Shown here one piece after another: positions 3,532 through 58,140 of a stretch of DNA of 64,000 bases (within the stretch, counting starts at the first letter, position 1; the number at the start of each line of letters is the position of its first letter). Under the pieces are notes generated by a model. That model made no database searches, was not told the origin of the DNA, and was given only the letters and a program-made list of their open reading frames with translations. The position numbers and the translations under genes are program-made. This stretch comes from an uncultured bacterium (GTDB lineage: Bacteria; Zixibacteria; MSB-5A5; GN15; FEB-12). Where the stretch lies: positions 9,472 to 73,471 of the forward strand of contig CBDVDR010000017.1 of the NCBI GenBank assembly GCA_965372795.1, written 5' to 3'.

Positions 3532-4146
3532 ATGAAGAAATTTGTTCTCGTATTAGCAATTCTAATTCTGGGTTCTTCAATTGCAGCTCAGGTTCCAAAA
3601 CCGTTCAACCTCTATGCCGGTGGAGGCTTTACAAAACCATCCAAAATTGATATCTCAACTATTGAGATTTCCCAATTTGATGTTTTTGATGACCAATGGA
3701 AGTCTGGTATTAATGGATTTGTGGGAGTCGGTTTTAAAATGATGCCTATGCTGGAAATAATAGGTAAAATTGAATACCATCGCATGAAATTTGATTGGGA
3801 TAGAACCGGATTCTCAAACCTTGCCAGTGGTATAAATTATCAGGTTTTAGCCTTTGGGGTTGAAGGTAAAGTCGCCATGGGCGCACCGGCAAGTCCAATT
3901 ACTCCCTATCTGTTTGGTGGCGGAGGAATCGCAGCTGTAACTTTCTCAACCCTTGATTTAGGAGGATTGAATATTTTTATCCCTCCACCGGGTAACATCA
4001 CCAAACCATACTACAATATTGGGGCTGGTGTAGAGCTTAACTTAATACCAATATTTAAAGTTTTCGTACAATTTCAGACCATGAGAATTGCGACCAAAGA
4101 CGAAACGACAAGTTTGATACCGTTTACAATCGGACTAAAATTTTAA
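3532..4146 (+). CDS. small outer-membrane beta-barrel protein, paralog of 2807-3394
   Basis: The track ORF starts at TTG 3526. ATG at 3532 has an AAGGA RBS 6 nt upstream. Signal peptide, the same QVP(Q/K)PF..YGGG N-terminus and the same ...IPFT(L/I)G(V/L)KF C-terminus as the upstream gene. Confidence 0.65.
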   Translation: MKKFVLVLAILILGSSIAAQVPKPFNLYAGGGFTKPSKIDISTIEISQFDVFDDQWKSGINGFVGVGFKMMPMLEIIGKIEYHRMKFDWDRTGFSNLASGINYQVLAFGVEGKVAMGAPASPITPYLFGGGGIAAVTFSTLDLGGLNIFIPPPGNITKPYYNIGAGVELNLIPIFKVFVQFQTMRIATKDETTSLIPFTIGLKF

Positions 4147-4164
4147 GAAATTATATTAATTAAT

Positions 4165-4203
4165 AAAAAAGGCATCGAATTTCATATTCGATGCCTTTTT
4201 TTA
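4165..4203. terminator. bidirectional terminator between convergent genes
   Basis: aaaaaaGGCATCGAATttcatATTCGATGCCttttttt: an 11-bp stem flanked by an A-run and a T-run. It overlaps the stop of the minus-strand HAD gene. Confidence 0.8.
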
Positions 4204-4887
4204 TTTGCAAACTGATGTTATAAGTTCATCCAAATTATTAATTTCAAAGTCTGCAATAATTTTAGAATTATTTTTAATTTGTTTAGGATTAAACCAGCAG
4301 GTGTCAATACCATAGTCTTTACCACCTTTTATATCAGAGGTTAAACTATCACCGACAATCAACACTTCATCTTTAGAGGGAAACTCCATTCTTTCAAAAC
4401 ATATATCAAATATTTTCTTATCAGGCTTTACCGCATCAACTTCATTTGAAATCACATAGTCTTGAAAGTAATGACCTATATCAGAATTATCAAATTTTCT
4501 TCGTTGCACTAATTTATTGCCATTGGTAATAATCATTAAACTGTAATTTTGTGAAAGAATTGATATAGTTACCTTAGCATTATCAATTAATTTTGCTTCT
4601 AAAGTTAAAAGTTCAAGATAAGTTTTACTGAATTCGGAAGGATTGCATTTAAATCCAAAATGATCTATTAAAATTTCAAATCGCTTGATGCTTAATAAAC
4701 TAACATTAAGTTCTTTGTTCTCAATATAACTCCAAAGCTGGTCATTGATTTCTTCAAACTTACTATGATGTTCTTCGCCAAATTCTAATCCAAATCTATC
4801 AAATAACTTTCTTAGCGAGGTCAACGAGGCATGTTCATAGTCGAAAAGAGTGCCGTCAGCATCAAACAACAACCATTTATATTTCAA
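4201..4887 (-). CDS. HAD-superfamily hydrolase (YjjG-like nucleotidase type)
   Basis: 228 aa. HAD motif I LLFDADGTLFDY at the N-terminus, motif II ITNG, motif IV VGDSLTSDIKGG. The start codon is TTG. Confidence 0.75.
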   Translation of the reverse strand: MKYKWLLFDADGTLFDYEHASLTSLRKLFDRFGLEFGEEHHSKFEEINDQLWSYIENKELNVSLLSIKRFEILIDHFGFKCNPSEFSKTYLELLTLEAKLIDNAKVTISILSQNYSLMIITNGNKLVQRRKFDNSDIGHYFQDYVISNEVDAVKPDKKIFDICFERMEFPSKDEVLIVGDSLTSDIKGGKDYGIDTCWFNPKQIKNNSKIIADFEINNLDELITSVCK

Positions 4888-4895
4888 ATCCCACC

Positions 4896-5396
4896 CTATT
4901 CCTCGTCAAGCTCCAACTCAATTATCGGAGTCTCGGTATCAACCTGATCGCCGGCTGAAAAATTAACCGCTTTAACTTTTCCCTTAGCTTTGCACATCAC
5001 CACGTTTTCCATCTTCATCGCTTCCACAATCACCATCTGTTGTTTCGGCTCTACCGCCTGTCCGACTTCAACCATGACCTTAACAATTTTCCCGGGCATC
5101 GGAGCGAAAATTTTATCCTTCTCACCCCCGTGATCCCCGGCTCCTCCGGCAAACCCGTCTTCTGATGGATCTTTCACTTCAAACTGAAGCGAATCAAAAT
5201 CAATATAATAAGTGCCATTATTTTTTATCACAGCAACAGAGGATTTTCGACCATTAATCAAACATGAATAAAGATTGTCGGCAACCTTAATAAAGTTGAA
5301 TTCTTTTTCACCCGAACGAACTTTGACACTTCCTTTTTCTACTTCAACCGAGGCTTCAATATTTTCACCTTCGAAAATAAAATCAAAGTTATTCAT
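4896..5396 (-). CDS. biotin carboxyl carrier (biotinyl) subunit of an acyl-CoA carboxylase (C-terminal part of MCC-alpha type)
   Basis: Biotinylation motif VEAMKMEN near the C-terminus. The track ORF (to 5552) overlaps the upstream gene by 164 nt. MNNFDF... at ATG 5394-5396 overlaps the upstream stop (ATGAATAA), so the shorter start is preferred. Confidence 0.75.
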   Translation of the reverse strand: MNNFDFIFEGENIEASVEVEKGSVKVRSGEKEFNFIKVADNLYSCLINGRKSSVAVIKNNGTYYIDFDSLQFEVKDPSEDGFAGGAGDHGGEKDKIFAPMPGKIVKVMVEVGQAVEPKQQMVIVEAMKMENVVMCKAKGKVKAVNFSAGDQVDTETPIIELELDEE

Positions 5397-8358: not shown

Positions 8359-9966
8359 CTACATTCTGAATACACCGTATTTCTGATCTGGTATCTCTGC
8401 ATTCAATGACATCGAAATCCCCAACGCCAACGCCTGACGAGTATCGGTCATCCCGATCAAACCATCATCCCAAATTCTCGCACCGCTAAAATAAGGAGTC
8501 GATTCACTTTCATATTTATCTATAATCGGCTGTCGAATAGCATTGATTTCTTCGGAAGTAAGTTTTTTACCTTCGGCTTCAAGCTGATTAATTTTTACCG
8601 TTGCCAGAACATCAGCCGCCTGTTCGCCGCCCATAACACAAATTTTTGAATTGGGCCACATCCACATCATCCGGGGAAAATATCCGCGTCCGCACATAGC
8701 ATAGTTACCGGCTCCATAAGATCCACCAACGACAACTGTAAATTTAGGTACATCAGCATTCGCAACCGCATGAACCATCTTGGCACCATCACGGGCAATA
8801 CCGCCGGCTTCGTATTGTCGGCCGACCATAAAGCCTGAAATGTTCTGCAAAAATATCAATGGAATTTTTCTTTCGGTGCAAAGCTCGATAAAATGAGCAC
8901 CCTTCACCGATGACTCTGCAAACAGAACCCCGTTGTTACCGATGATCCCCACCGGGTAACCCATAATTCTGGCAAAGCCGGTTACAAGAGTCGTGCCATA
9001 TAACTCTTTAAATTCATGAAAACGGGACCCATCAACAATTCGGGCAATCACTTCTTTAACATCAAACGGTTTCCGAAGATCATTTGAGACGACGCCGTAT
9101 AATTCTTCAGCCTCATAATATGGCTCTTCAATTTCTTTAATATCCATCGGAGTCTTATTGGTACGATTCAAATTCTCGACTACGTTACGACAAATTTGAA
9201 TCGAATGTTCATCATTTTGAGCATAATGATCGGACACCCCTGAAGTTCGACAGTGCACATCCGCCCCGCCTAATTCTTCCGGTGTGACTTCTTCCCCGGT
9301 AGCAGCTTTGACAAGCGGAGGACCGCCAATAAAAATAGTACCCTGTTTACGAACAATAATTGTTTCATCCGACATTGCCGGAAGATACGCACCGCCGGCA
9401 GTACAGGATCCCATCACAACTGAAATTTGAGGAATATTTTTCGCCGACATTCTTGCCATGTTATAAAAAATACGCCCGAAATGATCTTTGTCCGGAAAAG
9501 TACCCGATTGCAGAGGTAAAAATATACCGCCTGAATCTACCAGTGAAACACAAGGCAGATGATTCGTCTCGGCAATTTCCTGGGCGCGGGCATGTTTCAA
9601 AATTGTCATCGGGTAATAAGTTCCGCCCTTGACCGTCGCATCATTGACAATCACCATGACTTCTTTTCCGTGCACTCTGCCGATTCCGGTAATCAATCCT
9701 GCCGCAGGTGCGTGATTGTCATACATATCAAAAGCGGCAAGTGGACTTAGTTCCAAAAAAGGACTATTGCGGTCAAGCAGTTTTGCCAGCCGTTCACGCG
9801 GAAGAAGTTTCCCCCGGTCGATATGACGTTTTCGGGAACGCTCGGGTCCGCCTTGTTTTACTTTGTCGAGTCGTTCTTTAAATTCAAGATGCTGGGCTTT
9901 GTTAGCCTCAAAATTGTCTTTGTACTGTACAGATTTTAAATCAACCTTAGTTTCAAGTCGGAACAT
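8359..9966 (-). CDS. methylcrotonyl-CoA carboxylase beta / acyl-CoA carboxyltransferase subunit
   Basis: 535 aa. Carboxyltransferase N- and C-domain pattern ([49 protein letters not shown]). Confidence 0.9.
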
Positions 9967-15425: not shown

Positions 15426-15441
15426 ATTCTTATTAGCACAA

Positions 15442-15590
15442 GTAGGGCAGTGATCCCTGTGATCCTGCCATTTATGATTTCTTTCATGTTCTGTTGGGTC
15501 CTGATTTACCAAAGGTAAATTGTGACCCGACAGCACAAGTAGGGCAGGTCTCAACCAACCCTCGGTTGATAAAAACCTGCCTTTTTTTTT
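15442..15590 (+). repeat. two REP-like units (gcacaaGTAGGGCAG + hairpin); the second doubles as a terminator
   Basis: gtagggcagtgatccctgtgatcctgcc (15442-15469) and gtagggcaggtctcaacc...acctgcc (to 15581) followed by T9 (15582-15590). Shared leader gcacaagtagggcag. Confidence 0.75.
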
Positions 15591-15656: not shown

Positions 15657-16490
15657 ATGGAATTTGATAACATTTTAGAAAAACTAATTGAGTGGGGTGC
15701 ACTATACGGCACCAAAATTATCGGTGCCTTTGTAATTTTAGTCATTGGGAGAATTGTTACAGGAATAATTTCAAAACTTGTTCATCGACTTATGGTAAAA
15801 TCAAGTTTGGATAATGCTCTGGTACAATTTGCTACAACTCTGACAAGAATCACGATGTTAACTTTTGTAGTTCTGGCTGCGTTAAGCTCACTTGGGGTTG
15901 AAACAACTTCTTTTATTGCTATATTGGGTGCTGCCGGTTTAGCGATTGGTTTTGCTCTGCAGGGATCGTTATCTAATTTTGCTTCGGGAATCATGTTGAT
16001 TATTTTCCAACCCTTCAAAAGTGAAGACTTAGTTGAAGCTGGAGGGCATCTTGGGGTTGTAAGAGAAATTAATGTTTTTCATACTGTCATAATTTCATTG
16101 GATAATAAAAGAATTATAATACCTAACGGTAAAATTACAGGTGATAGCATTATAAATTATTCAGCTGAAGGATCTCTTCGTGTTGATATGGTTTTTGGTA
16201 TCGCATATCATGATAATATCAGCAAAGCAAAAGGTATATTGGAAGACATCTTAAAAGCTGACGGCCGTGTTTTAGACGATCCGCCATTTACGGTTGTGGT
16301 AAAAGAACTGGGAAACAGTTCGGTTGATTTTGCAGTCAGACCGTTTGTTAAAGTTGCAGACTACTGGGCTGTGTATTATGATACAACCGAAAAGGTGAAA
16401 AAGGCTTTTGACGAAAAAGGTGTTACGATACCATTCCCTCAACGCGATGTTCATTTTTACAAAGATTCAACCGAACCAATTTTGGAATAA
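15657..16490 (+). CDS. small-conductance mechanosensitive channel (MscS family)
   Basis: 277 aa. Three N-terminal TM helices, pore-helix motif AAGLAIGFALQGSLSNFASG, beta-domain afterwards. RBS AAAGGA. Confidence 0.85.
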   Translation: MEFDNILEKLIEWGALYGTKIIGAFVILVIGRIVTGIISKLVHRLMVKSSLDNALVQFATTLTRITMLTFVVLAALSSLGVETTSFIAILGAAGLAIGFALQGSLSNFASGIMLIIFQPFKSEDLVEAGGHLGVVREINVFHTVIISLDNKRIIIPNGKITGDSIINYSAEGSLRVDMVFGIAYHDNISKAKGILEDILKADGRVLDDPPFTVVVKELGNSSVDFAVRPFVKVADYWAVYYDTTEKVKKAFDEKGVTIPFPQRDVHFYKDSTEPILE

Positions 16491-16491
16491 T

Positions 16492-16615
16492 AGCCCGTAG
16501 GGCAGGACTCTTTAGCAGTTTTGCCAATCAGCCCGTAGGTCAGGTCTCTTTAGCAGTTCTGCCAATCAGCCCGTAGGTCAGGTCTCTCTTCTCTTGGAGA
16601 CCTGATCTGCATACT
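16492..16615 (+). repeat. 38-bp tandem REP array (2 full units plus a variant third unit)
   Basis: agcccgtagg(g/t)cagg(a/t)ctctttagcagtt(t/c)tgccaatc at 16492-16529 and 16530-16567. The third unit (16568-) continues into the hairpin caggtctc..gagacctg. Confidence 0.9.
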
Positions 16616-16687
16616 GTATTTTTCATAAAATAAATCATTTTCTTCTAAAAAAATCCGTGTAACTCTTTAATTTATTTAGCAATACAG

Positions 16688-16863: not shown

Positions 16864-16910
16864 CCCGTAGGTCAGGTCTCTCTTGGCTTCGAGACCTGAT
16901 CTGCATCCTG
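16864..16910 (+). repeat. REP-like unit (ccGTAGGtcaggtctc-loop-gagacctgatctg)
   Basis: Same family as 16568-16610 and 34288-34328. 8-bp stem caggtctc/gagacctg. Confidence 0.85.
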
Positions 16911-17049
16911 TATTCTCAAAGTATAGTTTCTTAGTTTTTCTCATAATTTTAGACATAACTTACCGTTCCTCTTTTCATAGAGAGGTATGAATTCTTATTC
17001 ACTAATGAAATGATGTTGAATTTGTAAGTGAGTGAAGGAAGATTTCTTC

Positions 17050-17137: not shown

Positions 17138-17190
17138 GGGTGCCCCACTCCTTGGGGTGGGTTTCTATTCATCTTAACCAACTGAACACA
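17138..17190 (+). repeat. left copy of a 53-bp direct repeat (27 bp perfect) bounding a 1.74-kb cassette
   Basis: gggtgccccactccttggggtgggttt is identical at 17138-17164 and 18878-18904, with weaker similarity for a further 26 nt. On the minus strand the left copy still reads V F S W L R stop. Confidence 0.85.
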
Positions 17191-17389
17191 TCAGTACTAT
17201 CTAGACATACTCTACTTCTACTTGATATGAATATATTAATAATTATTGACAAAAAATTTCAACATTATATCTTAATATTGAAACACGCACATCATAGTAG
17301 TCACATTTAAAGCTTGATTGACATAAACCTAACTTAAGAGTTGTCTTTTGAAAAGATTGTAATTCAACACTTTCAATAGTGGAGGAGAT

Positions 17390-18745
17390 ATGTTAAATAT
17401 TTCGGAATGTCAATCAGATCTCAATGAAGAAGAAATATTACAATGTCACTCAGAACTCATAGAGGACCTAAACTTTTTCCAAAGCACAGAATTTACAACC
17501 AAATTTCGCGATAATTTTAATTTAAAAAAACTTACACGAAAAAAGGGTATTAATGATCTGCAGAATAGAATTTCGAATTTCAGTTCAGAACCTTATTGTC
17601 ATCAATTGTACTCATACATTGATGAATTAAGGATGTGGGGCAAACAACAAATTTTTTTATATAAATTTAAACCTGCTGATAAAAATGACACCTTTCTAAA
17701 TGAGCTCTCCAAACCGGCATATATTCAAGAAAATTTAAAGAATAAAAACGTCGAAAATGTATTTGAAAATAATATTTGTTACTTAAAATCTGAAAAGCCT
17801 ATTTTGGCTCATGTATATTACGAAAACAAAAATAATAAAACTGTTAAATTGATATTCAAATGGATAATGACTCGCAAGTACTTTAAACTTGTTGGTAAAA
17901 CGTATATGCCAAGAGAAATACGATCGACCAGTTTTTTTGTTGTAAATTTGCTTGATGGCTTCGCAGAAATACGTCTACAACAATTACCACCCAACCCAAA
18001 TTTGAATCCGATGCAAGAACGCGATATGTATATAAAAGAAATTAACAAATATATCGACTTTCATAAATTTTCGTTGATAGAACTTAAACCGATTATGGAA
18101 ATAATTCTGAAAAAAGCAATCTTTACAAATAAAGCTGTAAATATTGTAAGTAGTAATAAGCCAGGTCATTTAATTTTTAAAAATTTATTTCCACGGTTTT
18201 ACAAACACCCTGTTGCTAATAGTGTTTCAGCATATTGGACTTGTAAACAGGACATTATAGGTAAATCAAAAATTAATTTTACATTATTTAGAGAAAGTAA
18301 CAGCATTAAATTAACGGGTGTAGTTGATCCTAAAAAATTAAATAAAATTTTAAATAAAATTTATGAAATCCATGAAGGTAATACTGATCCAATCGATCAT
18401 ATTCCATTTATAAGAAATGGTATTGTAGGTACAACGCTTAAACTTGTAGAAAATAAAGAAAAAACTGAGACTGTCCTGGTAACAACAGGGAGCCTCGGCG
18501 CATTTCTAATTTGGACTTTATGGGAGTTTTTGGTTGAATATATTAACCTTAAATTAACAGAACAGATTACTTGGCTCGATACAAATTATACTAAAAGTGT
18601 TGTAGAAATTTCATATATAATATTGTACTATGGAATTGACCGGATTATTCTTAGCATAAAATTTCTATTTATTCAAAGTCCTTTTAAGCTCATAAAGTTG
18701 ATTGCGGATTCAAAAAATAAGAAGATTACAGATTTGAGAACATAA
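17390..18745 (+). CDS. hypothetical protein, soluble N-terminal region plus two C-terminal TM helices
   Basis: 451 aa. Strong RBS GGAGGAG 3-9 nt upstream of the ATG. Very AT-rich, Lys/Asn/Ile-rich. Predicted TMs VLVTTGSLGAFLIWTLWEFLV and VVEISYIILYYGIDRIILSIKFLFI. No family recognised. Confidence 0.6.
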   Translation: MLNISECQSDLNEEEILQCHSELIEDLNFFQSTEFTTKFRDNFNLKKLTRKKGINDLQNRISNFSSEPYCHQLYSYIDELRMWGKQQIFLYKFKPADKNDTFLNELSKPAYIQENLKNKNVENVFENNICYLKSEKPILAHVYYENKNNKTVKLIFKWIMTRKYFKLVGKTYMPREIRSTSFFVVNLLDGFAEIRLQQLPPNPNLNPMQERDMYIKEINKYIDFHKFSLIELKPIMEIILKKAIFTNKAVNIVSSNKPGHLIFKNLFPRFYKHPVANSVSAYWTCKQDIIGKSKINFTLFRESNSIKLTGVVDPKKLNKILNKIYEIHEGNTDPIDHIPFIRNGIVGTTLKLVENKEKTETVLVTTGSLGAFLIWTLWEFLVEYINLKLTEQITWLDTNYTKSVVEISYIILYYGIDRIILSIKFLFIQSPFKLIKLIADSKNKKITDLRT

Positions 18746-18877: not shown

Positions 18878-18930
18878 GGGTGCCCCACTCCTTGGGGTGG
18901 GTTTATGTTCATCTCAACCAATAAATCACA
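18878..18930 (+). repeat. right copy of the 53-bp direct repeat
   Basis: See 17138-17190. Overlaps the last 6 codons plus stop (V I Y W L R stop) of the minus-strand 78-aa gene. Confidence 0.85.
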
Positions 18931-19145
18931 TTCAATATCGACCCCACCGCAAACAACACCCACGCCAATCGAAACAAGTTGTAACCAAGCGGAGTAAACA
19001 TCGCTTTATGCTTTTTCATGTTTTGCATGTCAAGCTTCACTGTCTCTCCGGGTGGATTATCCATTTTAAGTTTGTGGGTTGATACTGCCATCAGAATGAA
19101 GGCACAGAACCAGCATAATAGTGCGAGCACGAGAAGTATTTCCAT
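18909..19145 (-). CDS. small membrane protein (2 TM)
   Basis: 78 aa. TMs ILLVLALLCWFCAFILMAV and LFRLAWVLFAVGSILNVIYW. Good RBS AAGAGGA. 40 nt downstream of the 186-aa gene. Confidence 0.55.
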   Translation of the reverse strand: MEILLVLALLCWFCAFILMAVSTHKLKMDNPPGETVKLDMQNMKKHKAMFTPLGYNLFRLAWVLFAVGSILNVIYWLR

Positions 19146-19185
19146 CGTCAGTCCTCTTTATAAATCCTGCGTTTATTTAAGTTTG

Positions 19186-19746
19186 TTATAAAATAGTATC
19201 TACATCATTAATAAAAAGCCTAAGAATATCCCCTTTGTTTAATCCTTTATTTGAATGCCCTAAATCTTTCCTTATTGCAAACAATAACTCTTCTAAACTT
19301 AGTAGCAGTAATGGACTTTTGGGATCAGTTGCTGTTATTGTAGTTTGTCTAAATGCAACGAATGAATTTACAACTTGATCACCACCCCAAGGTATTAACT
19401 CTTGCATAAAACCTACTAAAAATGCTATAATTTCTTCATTTGTTTTTTTCTTTTCCTTTAACTCACCTGCAAATAAAGTATCAAATATAAAGTATATAAA
19501 TTTTGTATAAATATCTCTTTTTTTCTCACTTTGCTCTTCTCTGATTATTTTTTTCTTCTCATATAAATTTGCAATTATTAATGAAAATACAGAAATCATT
19601 ATTGTTCCACTAACTGCCACTACTGCGATAACTATATCATTATTCATACTCAAAATTTTATCTAAAACTAATTCGATTATTTTATAAATAAAGAATCCTG
19701 AAATTATTACAACAATAAGACTAAAAAACATACTACTATTTTTCAT
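19186..19746 (-). CDS. membrane protein (2 N-terminal TM plus helical cytoplasmic domain), hypothetical
   Basis: 186 aa. TMs FFSLIVVIISGFFIYKIIELV and IVIAVVAVSGTIMISVFSLIIA. RBS AAGGATGG. Downstream of the KAP NTPase on the same strand. Confidence 0.6.
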   Translation of the reverse strand: MKNSSMFFSLIVVIISGFFIYKIIELVLDKILSMNNDIVIAVVAVSGTIMISVFSLIIANLYEKKKIIREEQSEKKRDIYTKFIYFIFDTLFAGELKEKKKTNEEIIAFLVGFMQELIPWGGDQVVNSFVAFRQTTITATDPKSPLLLLSLEELLFAIRKDLGHSNKGLNKGDILRLFINDVDTIL

Positions 19747-19780
19747 AAATCCATCCTTCTATTAAAATTTGAGCAGGTTA

Positions 19781-19834
19781 GAAGCCCTACGCTCACGACA
19801 ATTGTTTGGCAGCATCACAGGGATGCCGCCCTAC
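19781..19834 (-). repeat. REP-like units in minus orientation between the KAP NTPase and the 186-aa gene
   Basis: The reverse complement reads gtagggcggcatccctgtgatgctgcc (same family as 15442 and 33960) plus a second gtaggg at 19785-19790. Confidence 0.75.
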
Positions 19835-19839
19835 TTGAA

Positions 19840-21561
19840 TTAAGACACTCTATCCTGAAAGTAATATTTAATGATTTTTACATTTTCATCAATTTCCTCA
19901 AAATTACTAAACAAAACTGAGGTATAGTTTAATTCCATAAATATTTCTGGTAATTCAGTGGCAGCTAAACCTGGTAATATCACTAATAGAATTTCTTTTT
20001 GTTCAAATTTATCAGAATGAAGATATTCAATTAATTTTCTATAAAGAGATTCATCAATATTTGAATCAATAAAAAACAAAAAGGCTAAACTATTGGAAAT
20101 ATAACTTTCTGCTAAATATCTATTTGGGTCAAAACTTTCTAAGAAACTATCAGAATACGTCATGTGATTATAGCCAGACTCATTAAACATTTCAATTAAT
20201 TTTGACAAGAATTCTTGAGGTATTGATTTCTCATTAAATATACTAACTCTAGAAAATGATTTAAGTTTTTTAGAATAATTTTCTTTCTTTCTTTGAGTCA
20301 TCAGGAATTGAGTTGTTGTGGTTCTTTTGATGTCGTTTGACAACCACTCTTCACCAAATCCGGAACTTAGCAATTTGTATAATTCTGGATCAGAGTTACA
20401 TTTCTTTGCAATAATTCTAATTTTATCATCAGGTGAGTCAATTGGAATTTTATTTTTATTTATCCATTCTATAATTTCTGCACATAGATATTTGTGTTTA
20501 ATAAGTAAATCAAAGATATATTCCCACCTTGATTGTAAACTTCTTGAAATTGCAAAGTATCCTATTGGAATTTTATCATCTTCATTCGAATTTATTTCAT
20601 TAAATATCTCACAATCAATAAGAAGATTATTTACGAATCTAATAGTTGTTCTTGGATTGTTTCCGCACGCTGTACCAATAATTGGCAAAATTACTTTAAA
20701 TGCATCACTATTCTCTATCTCTAATTGCTCAATCAAACTATTTGAGAAGTTTTCCATTCGTTGGTCATGAGGTGGAATTGGAAAAGGTAACTGCACCATT
20801 TTGTCTAAGTATTTACTCCCCTCGTCACCTTTTAGCCCAAATTCTTTCTCAAACCTATGTTGCAAATATCCTTCAATAATTGTTCTGGCAACTCCAAGTA
20901 TGAATACGAAACCCTTTTGTGATAGAACTAATTTGATGCTTTCAAGTAGCTTGACAGCGTTATCTGGAAAACATCTATCCAAATCATCTATTAGTACTAC
21001 GACTTTGAATTCAGAATCAATCTCAATCTTTGAAAGAGTTTCAAATGCATCAAAATATAAACTTTTATCAAGCAAAGGATCAGTTCTCTGTTTATCACTA
21101 TGATCGATCATATCTTTCGCAACAAATCCTGCTTCTATTTCAGCAAAACCCGGAATCTTTATTTTTGATTTTGCCGAAAATCCATAGGCAACTGCTTTTA
21201 ATCCTCTAACAAAAGATTTAAGTTGTCCTTTAAGCTTTTGGTCTTCACTTTTAAAATTTTCTAATCCTTGTACAATAGTTGCAACAAGGGGTACAATAGG
21301 ATGATCTTCCTGTTCAAAACGCCAGGCATTAAACCAAATCGTAATAATATTATTATTTTCCTCTAAATGCTTTTGAGTCAGTCTCAACAGGCTGGTCTTG
21401 CCTGAACCCCATTCACCGAATACACCTATCGTAAATGGTCCGGTCGTTCCAGCCGCCGCATCGCCTAAAACTTTTGCATAAGTATGAAATCCAAGCCCAT
21501 CTGTCTTAGAGTTATCATGCTCGCCGATTGCTTGATCTGATAATAATTTGAGTTTTCCCAT
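19840..21561 (-). CDS. KAP-family P-loop NTPase with extra C-terminal alpha/beta module
   Basis: 573 aa. Walker A GVFGEWGSGKTSLL, NAWRFE, Walker B VVVLIDDLDRC, LESIKL... as in KAP NTPases. No TM insert seen. About 130 aa of C-terminal extra domain. RBS GAGAGGGA. Confidence 0.8.
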   Translation of the reverse strand: MGKLKLLSDQAIGEHDNSKTDGLGFHTYAKVLGDAAAGTTGPFTIGVFGEWGSGKTSLLRLTQKHLEENNNIITIWFNAWRFEQEDHPIVPLVATIVQGLENFKSEDQKLKGQLKSFVRGLKAVAYGFSAKSKIKIPGFAEIEAGFVAKDMIDHSDKQRTDPLLDKSLYFDAFETLSKIEIDSEFKVVVLIDDLDRCFPDNAVKLLESIKLVLSQKGFVFILGVARTIIEGYLQHRFEKEFGLKGDEGSKYLDKMVQLPFPIPPHDQRMENFSNSLIEQLEIENSDAFKVILPIIGTACGNNPRTTIRFVNNLLIDCEIFNEINSNEDDKIPIGYFAISRSLQSRWEYIFDLLIKHKYLCAEIIEWINKNKIPIDSPDDKIRIIAKKCNSDPELYKLLSSGFGEEWLSNDIKRTTTTQFLMTQRKKENYSKKLKSFSRVSIFNEKSIPQEFLSKLIEMFNESGYNHMTYSDSFLESFDPNRYLAESYISNSLAFLFFIDSNIDESLYRKLIEYLHSDKFEQKEILLVILPGLAATELPEIFMELNYTSVLFSNFEEIDENVKIIKYYFQDRVS

Positions 21562-21652: not shown

Positions 21653-21727
21653 AAAAAAAGGCAGTCCGCCTTGGTGGACTGCCCTACTTAAATCTAACAC
21701 TGGATTCCTGCTTTCGCAGGAATGACA
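21653..21727 (-). repeat. REP-like units; the first acts as a terminator for the HMGCS operon
   Basis: The minus strand reads gtcattcctgcgaaagcaggaatcc ... gtagggcagtccaccaaggcggactgcc followed by T7. Confidence 0.75.
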
Positions 21728-25989: not shown

Positions 25990-26010
25990 ACACCCTTCGG
26001 GTGTTTTATT
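25990..26010 (+). terminator. rho-independent terminator
   Basis: acacccTTCGgggtgt hairpin immediately after the stop, followed by ttttattt. Confidence 0.6.
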
Positions 26011-26099
26011 TAAATAATTAGATCAGTTGGTTTGTTTGACAAGTGGTTTAGGTTGATATTTGTGATTAAGGTTTGAATCTTCCACGCAATTTGTCTGTA

Positions 26100-26129
26100 G
26101 GCAGGTATCATTGATACCTGCCTTTTTTT
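26100..26129 (+). terminator. rho-independent terminator / REP-like hairpin
   Basis: gtaGGCAGGTATCattGATACCTGCC followed by T7. Confidence 0.7.
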
Positions 26130-26181
26130 ATTGTTAAATTCTCACTTGAATTGTAATAATTGATTACATATACTATTACCA

Positions 26182-26931
26182 ATGCAGAAAAATAATAGTA
26201 AAAAATGTATCGGTAGAAATCTAAACTTTAAACGATGTAATCGATCAATAAATCGGGGATTCTTTTGCCATGACCATAATAGGCAACCCGTGAGATTCCT
26301 ATATTCAACAGTTATGTTATTACTAAGCATTATGGCTTTTTTTTCATATTGTATTCCACCTTCACAAACAATTCAAGTTCAATCAAATCATGAGAGGGAT
26401 CTTATCATTTGTGATCATTATTCTTTAGCTCTTAGTTTATTCTTAGCAAGATTTAGATTTAATTTATATATGCTTCCCCTATCAGATCCAATAGAAACTA
26501 CAATTTTAGAAGCATTTCAACCTGGAAAAGATTTACTACATACAAAACCAGACTTGGATAAAATAACACCAGATGTGATAAAAATAATCTTTACCACCTA
26601 TGATTTCTCAACAACTTTATATAATTATGAACCAATACAAGGTGGCAGATTACCAACGAATGTCGAAATGCTAAAAGGTGACATAAAAACATTAAATGAC
26701 AACTGTATAGATATATTGAGTAAGTATGCAAGTAGCGGCGATCCAAAATTAATTCAATCAATTGAAGTTATGAGAAATAGAACTGATAATTTACTTGGTC
26801 CATTTGGCATATCAAATCTTTCAAAACCCAATAAACACGAAATAGCAGATCTAATAGAATTATTTGAATTATTGCTCTCATCATATAAAACAATTGATGA
26901 AATCAAGAGTCGTACAGAAAATACTGATTAA
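26182..26931 (+). CDS. hypothetical protein: N-terminal Cys/His knuckle, one TM, C-terminal helical domain
   Basis: 249 aa. KKCIGRNLNFKRCNRSINRGFFCHDH (C-x10-C-x11-C-x2-H), TM VMLLLSIMAFFSYCI. AT-rich, no obvious RBS. Confidence 0.45.
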   Translation: MQKNNSKKCIGRNLNFKRCNRSINRGFFCHDHNRQPVRFLYSTVMLLLSIMAFFSYCIPPSQTIQVQSNHERDLIICDHYSLALSLFLARFRFNLYMLPLSDPIETTILEAFQPGKDLLHTKPDLDKITPDVIKIIFTTYDFSTTLYNYEPIQGGRLPTNVEMLKGDIKTLNDNCIDILSKYASSGDPKLIQSIEVMRNRTDNLLGPFGISNLSKPNKHEIADLIELFELLLSSYKTIDEIKSRTENTD

Positions 26932-26987
26932 AATGAGATTCTGTGGTCTTGGCAAACGAGGTCGACAGATCCCACTTCCCATCATTA

Positions 26988-27491
26988 CTAAGCTTCAAAT
27001 AGATTATATTTTTTCATAATTTTAGCAAATGATTTATCAATATTTGTAAATATTTCTGTAATTTTTTCAAATGCTATAGATTGTGCTCTGTATCCAGCTT
27101 CTGATCCATTAAAGCTTGCAAAAGTCATATTTGTAAAAGGAATAATCAATTTCCTTAAATCTTCTGGTAAATAAAACAAGTTCTTTTCCCAATACTCACG
27201 CGCTTCGACAACATCCTCATAAATCTTTTTTTTAATTTCATCACTAGCTCCACCAAATGAATTTAATGCTCTATTTATCATGTGAGCAAGATGATAAGAT
27301 TTAGCCATTATTTTAATCGATTCCTCTGAAATTATTTTTTCAATTTGAAAGGATCTATCTTTTTCACGATCTGCTATTTCAAGTTCCTTTAATTTTCTTG
27401 TATATCGTAATGTATAAATTGGCAACCCAAAACCTACGAAGAATGGTAACATTTTTTCAAACGCTTTTAATATTTCTGTAAAGAATTCCAT
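26988..27491 (-). CDS. hypothetical membrane-anchored helical protein
   Basis: 167 aa. N-terminal hydrophobic LPFFVGFGLPIYTL. RBS AAGGAAA. AT-rich, convergent with 26182-26931. Confidence 0.5.
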   Translation of the reverse strand: MEFFTEILKAFEKMLPFFVGFGLPIYTLRYTRKLKELEIADREKDRSFQIEKIISEESIKIMAKSYHLAHMINRALNSFGGASDEIKKKIYEDVVEAREYWEKNLFYLPEDLRKLIIPFTNMTFASFNGSEAGYRAQSIAFEKITEIFTNIDKSFAKIMKKYNLFEA

Positions 27492-56318: not shown

Positions 56319-57734
56319 TCAATCAAAATTATTATACCATTTCAAATCTATAAATTTAATATCACTAAATTGTTCAATGTTCAGATATGACAATAAGCGT
56401 GAATCGAAATTCAAATTAATCGGCTCGGTTGAATAGAGTAATATTTCAGGAGCCACTAAATTGCCATTAATTGTTAAGATTCTATTAGATTTATCTTTGC
56501 CAGACATATCTCCAAAAATCATCTTTTGGGCAACTAACTGTCCATCAATTAACAGGTCGTGCTTATCTGAGTTCTGATTTATAAATTTTGAAACAAACTC
56601 TACATTAAGATGATGTTTTTCAAAATCTTTAGATTTCTGAAGTCTGTTTAAAACCTCATTGGACCCTATAAAAATGTTACTGCCTGCAACTAATGATAGG
56701 GCGTTGATATGTCCCTGGGGACCTTTTCCGAAGGTTCGTTTACCTTTAAACATCCCGTCAGCATAGGTCAGGTTTTCAAAAATATAAATATTGCCACGGA
56801 CAAATAATTGTCCAGCCCCTTTTATTATACCGGAAAGGATCAAATCACCAGCTATGGCAACTTCCCCGTCAATAAGAATCGGATCCAGAGTTGTTCCCTT
56901 TAGGACCAAACTTCCTTCATGACTGTTAGCTATTCTATTAATACTAGTTGTATGAAGTGGTCTTGTGGATGCATCAATTAGAACCGAGGCTTTCTCACCG
57001 CCGGTGATATTACCGATTGCTGTTTTTATGACAGTAGAATAATTCTTTTCTAATATTTTCGGGAGTAATTTTGAAATTCTATTTTCTATTTGATGTTCTT
57101 CTTGTGCAGAGCAATTTGAATTTATATGATTTACAGGTTCAAGTGAAAAAACCTGTGGAGTAATTTTATTTTGAATATCTGTAATATTTGAATGACAATT
57201 GATACAACTCGATTTCTCAGATAGAGCGACAAAAGAAAATCCTTTTGAGTCATCTATTTCCACTTTAAAGTATTCAATTAATTTGCTTATCTGGCCATTT
57301 CCGGATTTCCCATAAGAAGTAATAATAAAATTGCAGGAGTTCTTAGTATCAGATCTTAAGATGAGAACCGAATCGACAGTTTGTTCTTCACCTACAATTA
57401 CAAATTCGAATAGTTTGATTTGGTTATCATTATAAATATTTTGTTCATTCAAATATTTACGATACGACACCAGACTGCCACTGTTTTCGTTATTGTAATT
57501 ATCTTTGCGGTTTGATTGTTCCAAGTATTCATTCCATAAAACTGCTTTCGTGATCTCCAGTCCGGATTCGGCAGAAAACAGAGCCTTATCAAGCTGTAAT
57601 TTATGTTCATTGGAATTAGTATTGTAAACCGATGACCCCATTAGCTGAATGCCTAAAATTAACAGAATAACCATAGTTATCGAGGCAAATTTTATCAGAT
57701 AGAGGCTTTCCTTTTTGTCATATCTACGTTTCAT
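56319..57734 (-). CDS. large pilus-associated protein (PilX/PilY-slot), hypothetical
   Basis: 471 aa. N-terminal TM ITMVILLILGIQLMG. Located between two pilin-like genes. Contains a single CINCH (CxxCH) motif. Confidence 0.45.
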   Translation of the reverse strand: MKRRYDKKESLYLIKFASITMVILLILGIQLMGSSVYNTNSNEHKLQLDKALFSAESGLEITKAVLWNEYLEQSNRKDNYNNENSGSLVSYRKYLNEQNIYNDNQIKLFEFVIVGEEQTVDSVLILRSDTKNSCNFIITSYGKSGNGQISKLIEYFKVEIDDSKGFSFVALSEKSSCINCHSNITDIQNKITPQVFSLEPVNHINSNCSAQEEHQIENRISKLLPKILEKNYSTVIKTAIGNITGGEKASVLIDASTRPLHTTSINRIANSHEGSLVLKGTTLDPILIDGEVAIAGDLILSGIIKGAGQLFVRGNIYIFENLTYADGMFKGKRTFGKGPQGHINALSLVAGSNIFIGSNEVLNRLQKSKDFEKHHLNVEFVSKFINQNSDKHDLLIDGQLVAQKMIFGDMSGKDKSNRILTINGNLVAPEILLYSTEPINLNFDSRLLSYLNIEQFSDIKFIDLKWYNNFD

Positions 57735-58140
57735 TGATTACCTCTTTTGCTATCTGAACCGGAGTTAGAAGTTTCAGAGCAGATAATCTGGCGAGACATT
57801 CAACGTTTTTATTTTCAAAAGGAAACACTTCAATTGTTAATTTATAGATACCCGAGCGTATATTATTTTTTTTAATTTGTCTAAATATTCTAAATTCACC
57901 AGAAACAATTTCTGATGATGATTCCTTATAATGGTTCGAATTGATCAATTTTTCCAATTCTATTCTCGCCAATTCGTTCGCTGAGTTAGATCTATGGGTA
58001 GAATGGTTGCTATTATTTAAAGCAAGGATAAGCGGCGAGATACCTGTCACCCCAACAACAATGATTGCTGCGACAATAAGCAACTCCCGGCATGAGAACC
58101 GGTAAAATCGGCTAATATTTCTTATATAATAATTCAACAT
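57724..58140 (-). CDS. pseudopilin-like small protein (degenerate prepilin N-terminus)
   Basis: 138 aa. Hydrophobic helix ELLIVAAIIVVGVTGISPLILAL followed by an ANELARIELEKLI helix as in PilV/GspI-type minor pilins. No canonical G/F cleavage motif. Confidence 0.4.
   Translation of the reverse strand: MLNYYIRNISRFYRFSCRELLIVAAIIVVGVTGISPLILALNNSNHSTHRSNSANELARIELEKLINSNHYKESSSEIVSGEFRIFRQIKKNNIRSGIYKLTIEVFPFENKNVECLARLSALKLLTPVQIAKEVINET

Follow-up and report, generated by a model that had tools for sequence, protein, structure and literature searches.

An AT-rich locus in the 64,000-nt stretch of contig CBDVDR010000017.1 from an uncultured Zixibacteria bacterium (this whole stretch is referred to as the window) is probably a patchwork defence island of independently acquired cassettes and not one operon. 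The locus lies between mscS and the HMG-CoA-synthase (HMGCS) operon and features three minus-strand genes, which encode a KAP-family P-loop NTPase (gene 1), a protein with a transmembrane (TM) hairpin and a helical domain (gene 2) and a small protein with two hydrophobic segments (gene 3). The cassettes would be separated by hairpin repeats of host type between mscS and the HMGCS operon, and the adjacency of genes 1 and 2 would have arisen because both were inserted at one hot spot and would not mark a conserved functional unit. An earlier note, made from the sequence alone, had placed the open reading frames (ORFs) at the positions, strand and lengths (573, 186 and 78 aa) that we also obtained, and had proposed that they form a defence-related abortive-infection operon. 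A role in defence agrees with our results, as gene 1 matches the predicted defence system PDC-S20 and the family of gene 2 is embedded in defence operons. The idea of a shared three-gene system fared less well.

Reciprocal neighbourhood checks split the locus into cassettes. On the KAP side, 80 KAP-family loci from GTDB representative genomes were sampled with ±5 kb flanks, out of thousands of members, while the gene-2 side was represented by 82 loci, 65 of them distinct, likewise out of thousands of family members. A hidden Markov model (HMM) of the gene-2 family recovered the window's own gene and found no gene-2 relative within the 5-kb flanks of any of the 80 KAP loci, which also featured no recurrent downstream ORF and no downstream membrane protein. 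In the other direction, a KAP HMM found no KAP gene in the 82 gene-2 loci, where its only match was a lone canonical TIR protein 2 kb from a gene-2 relative (L127, 9616–10428). No homolog or analogue of gene 3 was present in 167 fetched loci, and no small 2-TM ORF lay downstream of gene 2 in 54 distinct relatives. The conserved three-gene system of the earlier note, which had itself named missing co-occurrence as the result that would speak against it, therefore has no counterpart in the sampled genomes (0/80, 0/82 and 0/167 loci). The mere adjacency of genes within such an AT-rich tract only weakly supports a multi-gene system.

Base composition sets gene 3 apart from its neighbours. In a 1-kb profile, the tract from ~17.0 to 21.6 kb has a GC content of about 0.30, compared with 0.386 for the whole window. 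The KAP gene (GC 0.315, third-position GC (GC3) 0.23), gene 2 (GC 0.258, GC3 0.17) and ORF451 (GC 0.286, GC3 0.24) are all AT-rich, whereas gene 3 (GC 0.426, GC3 0.53) is like or above the flanking host genes (GC3 0.43–0.49). The AT-richness ascribed to all three genes thus holds for the KAP gene and gene 2 only, and the three cannot be the joint core of the AT-rich island, an account that also omitted ORF451. Hand counts of GC in the earlier note were reproduced exactly at 19981–20040 (12/60) and 8701–8760 (24/60); the HMGCS operon is richer in GC than the island, as claimed, with 29–33/60 in three sampled 60-mers in place of the 33–36/60 reported. As gene 3 has host-like GC3 amid AT-rich genes, it looks native, situated between two foreign cassettes. 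A word-indexed search of 5.8 billion proteins, which needs words of five residues in common and so might overlook remote kin, detected no relative of gene 3. The two hydrophobic segments behind its description as a 2-TM protein are present, but its reality as a gene is doubtful. Gene 3 is probably an orphan ORF of host composition that belongs to neither cassette.

The sequences between the genes are also consistent with stepwise assembly. A 93-nt spacer of GC 0.45 separates the KAP gene from gene 2, and 40 nt separate gene 2 from gene 3. The longer spacer contains the box AAGTAGGGCGG followed by a hairpin with a 9-bp stem and a 5-nt loop, which is present in the minimum free energy (MFE) fold. 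The window contains four copies of the 5′ box AAGTAGGGCRG where 0.8 would be expected; the aligned copies outside the spacer lie immediately upstream of the KAP gene and in the region between cysK and mscS. The repetitive extragenic palindromic (REP) unit that had been noticed between genes 1 and 2 is therefore a real member of a small host repeat family, given that copies also lie between host genes. The spacer hairpin has no T-tract and a terminator scan makes no call in this spacer; no promoter-like site was found there either, from a promoter scan that performed at chance level across the window (24 sites versus 24.1 expected). Each of the three genes has its own ribosome-binding site, as had been stated for genes 2 and 3, in the form of a Shine-Dalgarno-like purine run 6–11 nt before the ATG. 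At the right boundary of the island, a further REP-type hairpin is followed by a T-tract and is likely to be the terminator of the upstream HMGCS operon.

On the other side of gene 3, two copies of a 54-nt direct repeat (87% identical, with no further copy in the window) enclose ORF451. The end of gene 3, seven codons and the stop, lies within the right copy together with a hairpin; the left copy keeps '...VFSWLR' and a stop in frame with no ORF upstream. This pair looks like an att-like or target-duplication scar. No integrase is encoded within the bracketed segment, and Rfam and tRNA scans of the window found nothing, so there is no tRNA integration site. Composition, host-type hairpins and the 54-nt bracket together lead us to infer cassette-wise assembly at a hot spot. 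ORF451 features a C-terminal hydrophobic segment (residues 410–428) and no exact protein record; searches of Pfam, PADLOC, NCBIfam, PHROGs and plasmids gave no match either, and it may be another cargo gene of the defence island.

Gene 1 encodes a KAP P-loop NTPase, as the earlier note had recognised: Pfam PF07693 matches with an E-value of 6.3e-40 and 137.7 bits (cutoff 20), and the Walker A and Walker B motifs that had been picked out both fall in invariant alignment columns. The protein retains every residue that is invariant among 12 aligned relatives, the set on which conservation was judged, including both Walker motifs. Conserved residues of the helical middle region are W346, L394, L398, G403, W406, L407, R413, F419 and L420. 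TM helices inserted in the NTPase domain are typical of many, though not all, KAP members. Their reported absence here is correct, as gene 1 has no convincing TM window, and the close KAP relatives listed have no membrane-associated Pfam domain. The best full-length PADLOC match, judged by E-value and profile coverage and not by PADLOC's own score thresholds, is PDLC04959 (PDC-S20; E 1.7e-33, residues 10–460 versus profile positions 8–460 of 464), and three other PDC-S20 profiles match with E-values from 1e-23 to 8e-17.

A search of 5.8 billion proteins returned more than 2,675 KAP relatives, most of about 570 aa, with a patchy distribution across cyanobacteria, actinomycetes, Chloroflexota, Planctomycetota, Saccharibacteria and archaea. 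About 84 of the top 119 homologs (~70%) carry a TIR_2 or TIR domain at the C-terminus, and the others feature pentapeptide repeats, CHAT, NB-ARC, SWIB, Trans_reg_C or no domain match. Single-protein defence systems usually show this pattern, in which modules are exchanged while the NTPase chassis stays the same. Examples of alternative modules on the same KAP chassis include P0017, P0021, P0026, P0045, P0071 and P0116, where CHAT is a protease; some relatives of 430–510 aa show no C-terminal domain match and may be without a module. No tblastn match to the KAP protein was found in 50,697 phage records, and plasmids provided only distant matches (24–34% identity over about half its length), some of them annotated as QatA. 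A phage or plasmid origin of the KAP gene was rejected on these grounds.

The extra C-terminal module noticed previously is confirmed as about 135 aa beyond the KAP region, at the position where relatives carry a TIR domain. The 148-aa C-terminus matched no Pfam family at E ≤ 10, TIR, TIR_2 and ThsB_TIR included; at the same position, TIR_2 is clear in P0002 (3.6e-21; 50% identical to the KAP protein) and P0004 (1.1e-24). Pairwise matches between the KAP C-terminus and the TIR domains of relatives are weak and consistently collinear, such as 26% identity over 103 residues with P0013. An AlphaFold2 (AF2) model, built from an alignment of 58 relatives anchored on the conserved helices that precede the domain, features five beta-alpha units with a mean predicted local distance difference test (pLDDT) score of 84. 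The best Foldseek TM-scores were to TIR domains, led by RRS1 (4c6t, TMt 0.70, rmsd 3.4 Å) and followed by SARM1 and SPARTA TIR-APAZ, with E-values of about 2e-3 for TIR folds and flavodoxin, Arf and CheY folds interleaved at similar scores. Two independent alignments place L510 or I511 in the column that holds the catalytic Glu of helix alpha-C; since E512 is one to two residues away, a register shift is possible. The N-terminal 'YD.F.SY' strand motif of TIR domains is gone. From the alignments and the model, we read this domain as TIR-derived and drifted. As the domain is so diverged and has no aligned catalytic Glu, its effector chemistry has probably been altered or lost, and NADase activity, as a prediction from sequence, is doubtful.

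In a plausible mechanism, NTP binding and hydrolysis would switch the KAP protein on after a phage cue and thereby release the C-terminal effector. For typical KAP-TIR relatives, this effector would be a TIR NADase, and its activity would lead to loss of NAD+ and abortive infection. The earlier proposal of an NTPase sensor acting with small membrane effectors as one system is not supported: relatives of the KAP protein are single genes with their own C-terminal effector, gene 3 is an orphan and no pairing is seen.

The description of gene 2 as a 2-TM protein with a helical domain is supported by two N-terminal hydrophobic helices and an AF2 model (mean pLDDT 83.6) that is all-helical in the remaining domain. 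In this model, the second helix of the TM hairpin runs into the soluble part, which comprises a three-helix bundle and a conserved C-terminal loop. A Lys/Arg-rich stretch follows the second TM helix and, by the positive-inside rule, the protein probably adopts an N-in/C-in topology with a cytoplasmic helical domain. The word-indexed search returned only 31 relatives of gene 2. A full profile search over cluster representatives matched 3,621 at E ≤ 1e-3, of which 1,963 also reached E ≤ 1e-10; with few exceptions they are 180–240 aa long and matched over their full length. The window protein matches the family profile at 3.5e-58 over positions 7–189, a score that is partly a self-match because gene 2 was included in the alignment behind the profile. 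Among 100 members, Y80 and R159 are invariant and K76, W120, E152, D161, G163, G172, L175 and D181 nearly so, and the C-terminal consensus reads IRKDLGH..x..GD.L.LFINDID. All invariant and near-invariant residues are kept in the window protein.

Gene 2 has no significant relative in Pfam, PADLOC, NCBIfam, PHROGs or PDB sequences. Fold searches with Foldseek against PDB and BFVD reached a best E-value of 0.17, and the best E-value of a PDB sequence-profile search was 0.065. Sub-threshold matches to the TM hairpin (SAVED_TM, 0.017; CyanoTRADDas_TM, 0.065; Holin-X in 8 of 100 members; SLATT_fungal in 2 of 100) may simply reflect composition. The closest relative (L001; 47% identity) is encoded on a 63%-GC contig beside an integrase-like gene, where gene 2 itself is the sole similarity to the window, so this family moves between very different genomes. 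The family is essentially absent from phage genomes: tblastn with gene 2 found no match in 50,697 phage records, and there was one match in IMG/VR and one in plasmids (Calothrix). A phage or plasmid origin was rejected for gene 2 as well. The plasmid relative, on Calothrix sp. NIES-4105 plasmid1 (AP018291.1; L163, 6824–7363), is annotated as two short coding sequences and may be frameshifted; it lies downstream of an XRE regulator, between genes for a 1,116-aa hypothetical protein and a 1,094-aa 'putative helicase'.

In other genomes, gene-2 relatives are embedded among same-strand neighbours, often with overlapping junctions or gaps of <35 nt (neighbour types are collected in Table 1). Our own count from per-protein Pfam results assigns roughly 27 of 63 scanned flanking proteins to restriction–modification (R-M), nuclease or defence types. 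Compared with a general estimate of a few per cent for random genes, this share is far above expectation. Clearly non-defence neighbours also occur (HydF, ClpB, FlhB and an aminotransferase), and many neighbours have no annotation. A conserved helicase partner was considered and rejected: the large helicases encoded downstream belong to groups unrelated to one another, so the family has no fixed partner. Collectively, the gene-2 family is a well-supported, previously unrecognised 'embedded' (guilt-by-embedding) defence candidate.

Several individual neighbourhoods are worth recording. A Saccharibacteria-type tight operon with overlapping junctions (L011, 2954–10106; L016, 87–9880; L014, 15–10819) has the order MmeI-like type IIG R-M enzyme, gene-2 relative, DUF2779, and AAA_15/21 ATPase or 1,486-aa helicase-restriction endonuclease (REase). 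Serine recombinases are encoded near two of these operons (L011 and L014), in keeping with the idea of recombinases as defence markers (PMC13552941). In L164 (6180–7594) and L165 (772–2186), the gene-2 relative begins 80 nt after the gene for a 246-aa SEFIR/TIR_2 protein and is followed by two genes without assigned function and an FRG-domain gene.

Gene 2 would be an autonomous membrane-anchored factor that acts against phages or mobile DNA at the inner face of the membrane, either by blocking the entry of foreign DNA in the style of superinfection exclusion or, as abortive infection (Abi) systems do, by perturbing the membrane once triggered. A stand-alone defence role is slightly favoured, as the partners are so varied. 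We tentatively raise the possibility that the family represents a new and widespread class of defence proteins of ~190 aa, spread over many phyla, with a membrane anchor, a previously undescribed helical domain and no fixed partner, which rides in R-M, Abi, helicase-nuclease and TIR operons as stand-alone membrane factors or as couplers of cytoplasmic systems to the membrane.

Some observations weigh against a patchwork of separate cassettes. The three genes are co-oriented with spacers of only 93 and 40 nt, and the lack of a T-tract terminator and of a promoter-like site between the KAP gene and gene 2 makes their co-transcription plausible and a local functional link possible. A look through public sequencing runs found none that contains this stretch. 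Gene-2 relatives adjoin a TIR protein in L164/L165 and lie near one in L127, so a loose TIR-gene 2 affinity is possible. The neighbourhood comparison covers 80 KAP loci and 65 distinct gene-2 loci among thousands, the gene-3 search by 5-residue words could miss remote relatives, and the functions of all three proteins are predictions from sequence and structural models.

An unlikely alternative that draws on these points is a recent two-gene partnership, in which gene 2 is an effector or membrane anchor that replaces the degenerated TIR domain of the KAP protein, and gene 3 is irrelevant. Divergence of the TIR domain beyond profile detection, with Leu/Ile in the catalytic-Glu column, would fit such a replacement, as would the gene-2 relatives directly downstream of a TIR protein (L164/L165) or near one (L127) and the absence of an obvious terminator or promoter between the two genes. 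However, the pairing is seen at this locus only, the genes differ in GC3 and are separated by a host-type repeat and a GC-rich spacer, and gene-2 neighbours elsewhere are mostly DNA-targeting systems without NTPase-TIR logic.

There is also a small chance that the cassettes are decaying cargo, relics of old horizontal transfers that drift AT-ward in an inactive locus whose KAP effector has been lost. Very low GC3, the loss of TIR motifs (the N-terminal YD.F.SY strand and the catalytic-Glu column included) and the absence of relatives for ORF451 and gene 3 are compatible with decay, but all ORFs are intact, the KAP protein and gene 2 keep the conserved residues of their families (every residue invariant in the 12 aligned KAP relatives, Walker A and B among them, and all invariant and near-invariant positions of gene 2), and the AF2 model still gives the C-terminal domain a confident alpha/beta fold. 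A lineage-specific three-gene abortive-infection operon, with the KAP protein sensing infection and two small membrane proteins as effectors, is very improbable: co-orientation, short spacers, individual ribosome-binding sites, a spacer hairpin without a T-tract and two hydrophobic helices in both small proteins are outweighed by the lack of co-occurrence in either direction, an orphan gene 3 with GC3 of 0.53 versus 0.17–0.23 for the other two, KAP relatives that are single genes with their own C-terminal effector, and gene-2 relatives that pair with many unrelated systems. A patchwork of independently acquired cassettes thus remains our preferred explanation.

Table 1. Coordinates of features in and around the island (window positions), and genes beside gene-2 relatives in other genomes (locus numbers).
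Feature	Position or locus	Strand	Basis
Gene 1, KAP-family P-loop NTPase, 573 aa	19840–21561	-	ORF, Pfam, PADLOC
KAP NTPase core, residues 28–315, Walker A GEWGSGKT, Walker B VVLIDDLDRC	20617–21480	-	Pfam, alignment
Family-specific helical middle region, residues about 316–436	20254–20616	-	PDC-S20 profile, conservation, AF2 helices
C-terminal alpha/beta domain, residues about 437–573, diverged TIR-like	19843–20253	-	Pfam, pairwise, AF2, Foldseek
REP-like hairpin, box AAGTAGGGCGG with 9-bp stem and 5-nt loop	19808–19836	-	sequence, box count, MFE fold
Gene 2, TM hairpin and helical domain, 186 aa	19186–19746	-	ORF, AF2, family profile
Gene 3, orphan ORF with two hydrophobic segments, 78 aa	18909–19145	-	ORF, GC3, homolog search
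54-nt direct repeat, copy 2, right edge of ORF451 cassette	18878–18931	.	repeat search
ORF451, AT-rich, converges on gene 3, 451 aa, separate cassette of island	17390–18745	+	ORF, composition
54-nt direct repeat, copy 1, left edge of ORF451 cassette	17138–17191	.	repeat search
REP-type hairpin then T-tract, right island boundary	21658–21689	-	box copies, terminator scan
MmeI-like type IIG R-M enzymes	L011, L016, L017		
MutH-like endonuclease and Dcm methylase	L002 (Parvimonas micra)		
AAA_21 and RloB (AbiL-like)	L008		
Mrr_cat nuclease upstream, SF1/Schlafen-like helicase downstream	L124, L125		
Type I HsdS and HsdR, flanking on either side	L128, L132, L141, L147, L160		
M.EcoRI upstream and GmrSD downstream, both overlapping	L131		
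DpnII endonuclease	L134		
EcoRII-C endonuclease	L150		
SieB	L110		
DUF559	L109		
1,486-aa helicase-REase	L014		
SEFIR/TIR protein	L164, L165		

Outside the three genes, the left island edge features a cluster of host REP-like elements (15440–15470, 15537–15590, 16492–16567, 16570–16620 and 16864–16914). Among them are hairpins that carry the box AAGTAGGGCAG, two 38-nt elements in tandem, and a 51-nt pair that is 92% identical and separated by 294 nt. The adjacent gene for an MscS-like channel (15657–16490, plus strand) has a GC3 of just 0.27, compared with 0.43–0.49 in neighbouring host genes, and the island may therefore start further left than 16.5 kb. Further AT-rich dips at 4001–5000 (GC 0.317), 26001–27000 (0.306) and 57001–58000 (0.320) may be other acquired cassettes.

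Comparison with known systems places gene 1 among single-gene defence candidates. It matches PDC-S20 over the full length of the profile and, like it, is a single-gene unit without a conserved partner, differing in about 113 further residues that form the TIR-like domain. PDC systems were predicted because they lie embedded in operons of BREX, DISARM and type I R-M systems, an approach called 'guilt-by-embedding' (Payne et al. 2024, bioRxiv 10.1101/2024.01.29.577857), and as no experimental test of PDC-S20 was found in the literature, it is a candidate only. A match to an already named system, one of the outcomes that the earlier note had listed as refuting its proposal, therefore applies in part, to gene 1 as a PDC-S20 candidate. 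The nearest architectures are KAP-TIR fusions of ~570 aa, such as P0002, P0004, P0010 of Leptolyngbya sp. Heron Island J and P0096 of Acaryochloris, which share 42–50% identity over >90% of their length with the window KAP and have the same domain order and length. These relatives feature a clear TIR_2 domain (in the two that were scanned) and a conserved Glu, whereas the window KAP has no TIR match at E ≤ 10 and Leu/Ile in the Glu column. From its sequence, gene 1 is a stand-alone KAP NTPase of the PDC-S20/KAP-TIR type.

EF_KAP and three KAP-effector fusions from gut metagenomes are experimentally validated single genes (PLoS Biol 2026, PMC13552941); phage protection of E. faecalis by KAP NTPase fusions depended on Walker B as well as on the C-terminal region (PMC13552941), which agrees with the NTP-driven switch proposed above. 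The likeness of EF_KAP to the window protein is by description, and EF_KAP differs in having TM helices and, at its C-terminus, 322 aa whose fold is not known. QatA of QatABCD and PifA of the F plasmid have the KAP core in common with the window KAP (PADLOC E-values of 1.9e-34 and 1.6e-28, respectively). Identity with QatA was rejected because the best matching stretch covers positions 29–110 of 646 and the NCBIfam equivalog scores 134 bits versus a cutoff of 600, and none of the neighbours is QatB/C/D-like, with no QueC- or TatD-like match among them; PifA was rejected because only profile positions 12–257 of 720 were matched. The KAP gene adds a new member, one with a degenerate effector, to a known candidate family. 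As a variant with an eroded TIR domain in a family only just experimentally supported as anti-phage, it could reveal whether such proteins still work after their effector has degenerated.

For gene 2, the closest parallels are the 2-TM conflict modules SLATT, SAVED-TM and Holin-X, which it matches only below threshold and only in the TM hairpin; unlike these, it features a helical domain and a C-terminal motif with no known sequence or fold relative. The nesting of its relatives in type I and other R-M operons is the same type of evidence that was used to nominate PDC systems. Large, well conserved, without a Pfam model and represented by a small protein that can be quickly cloned, the gene-2 family is a practical lead.

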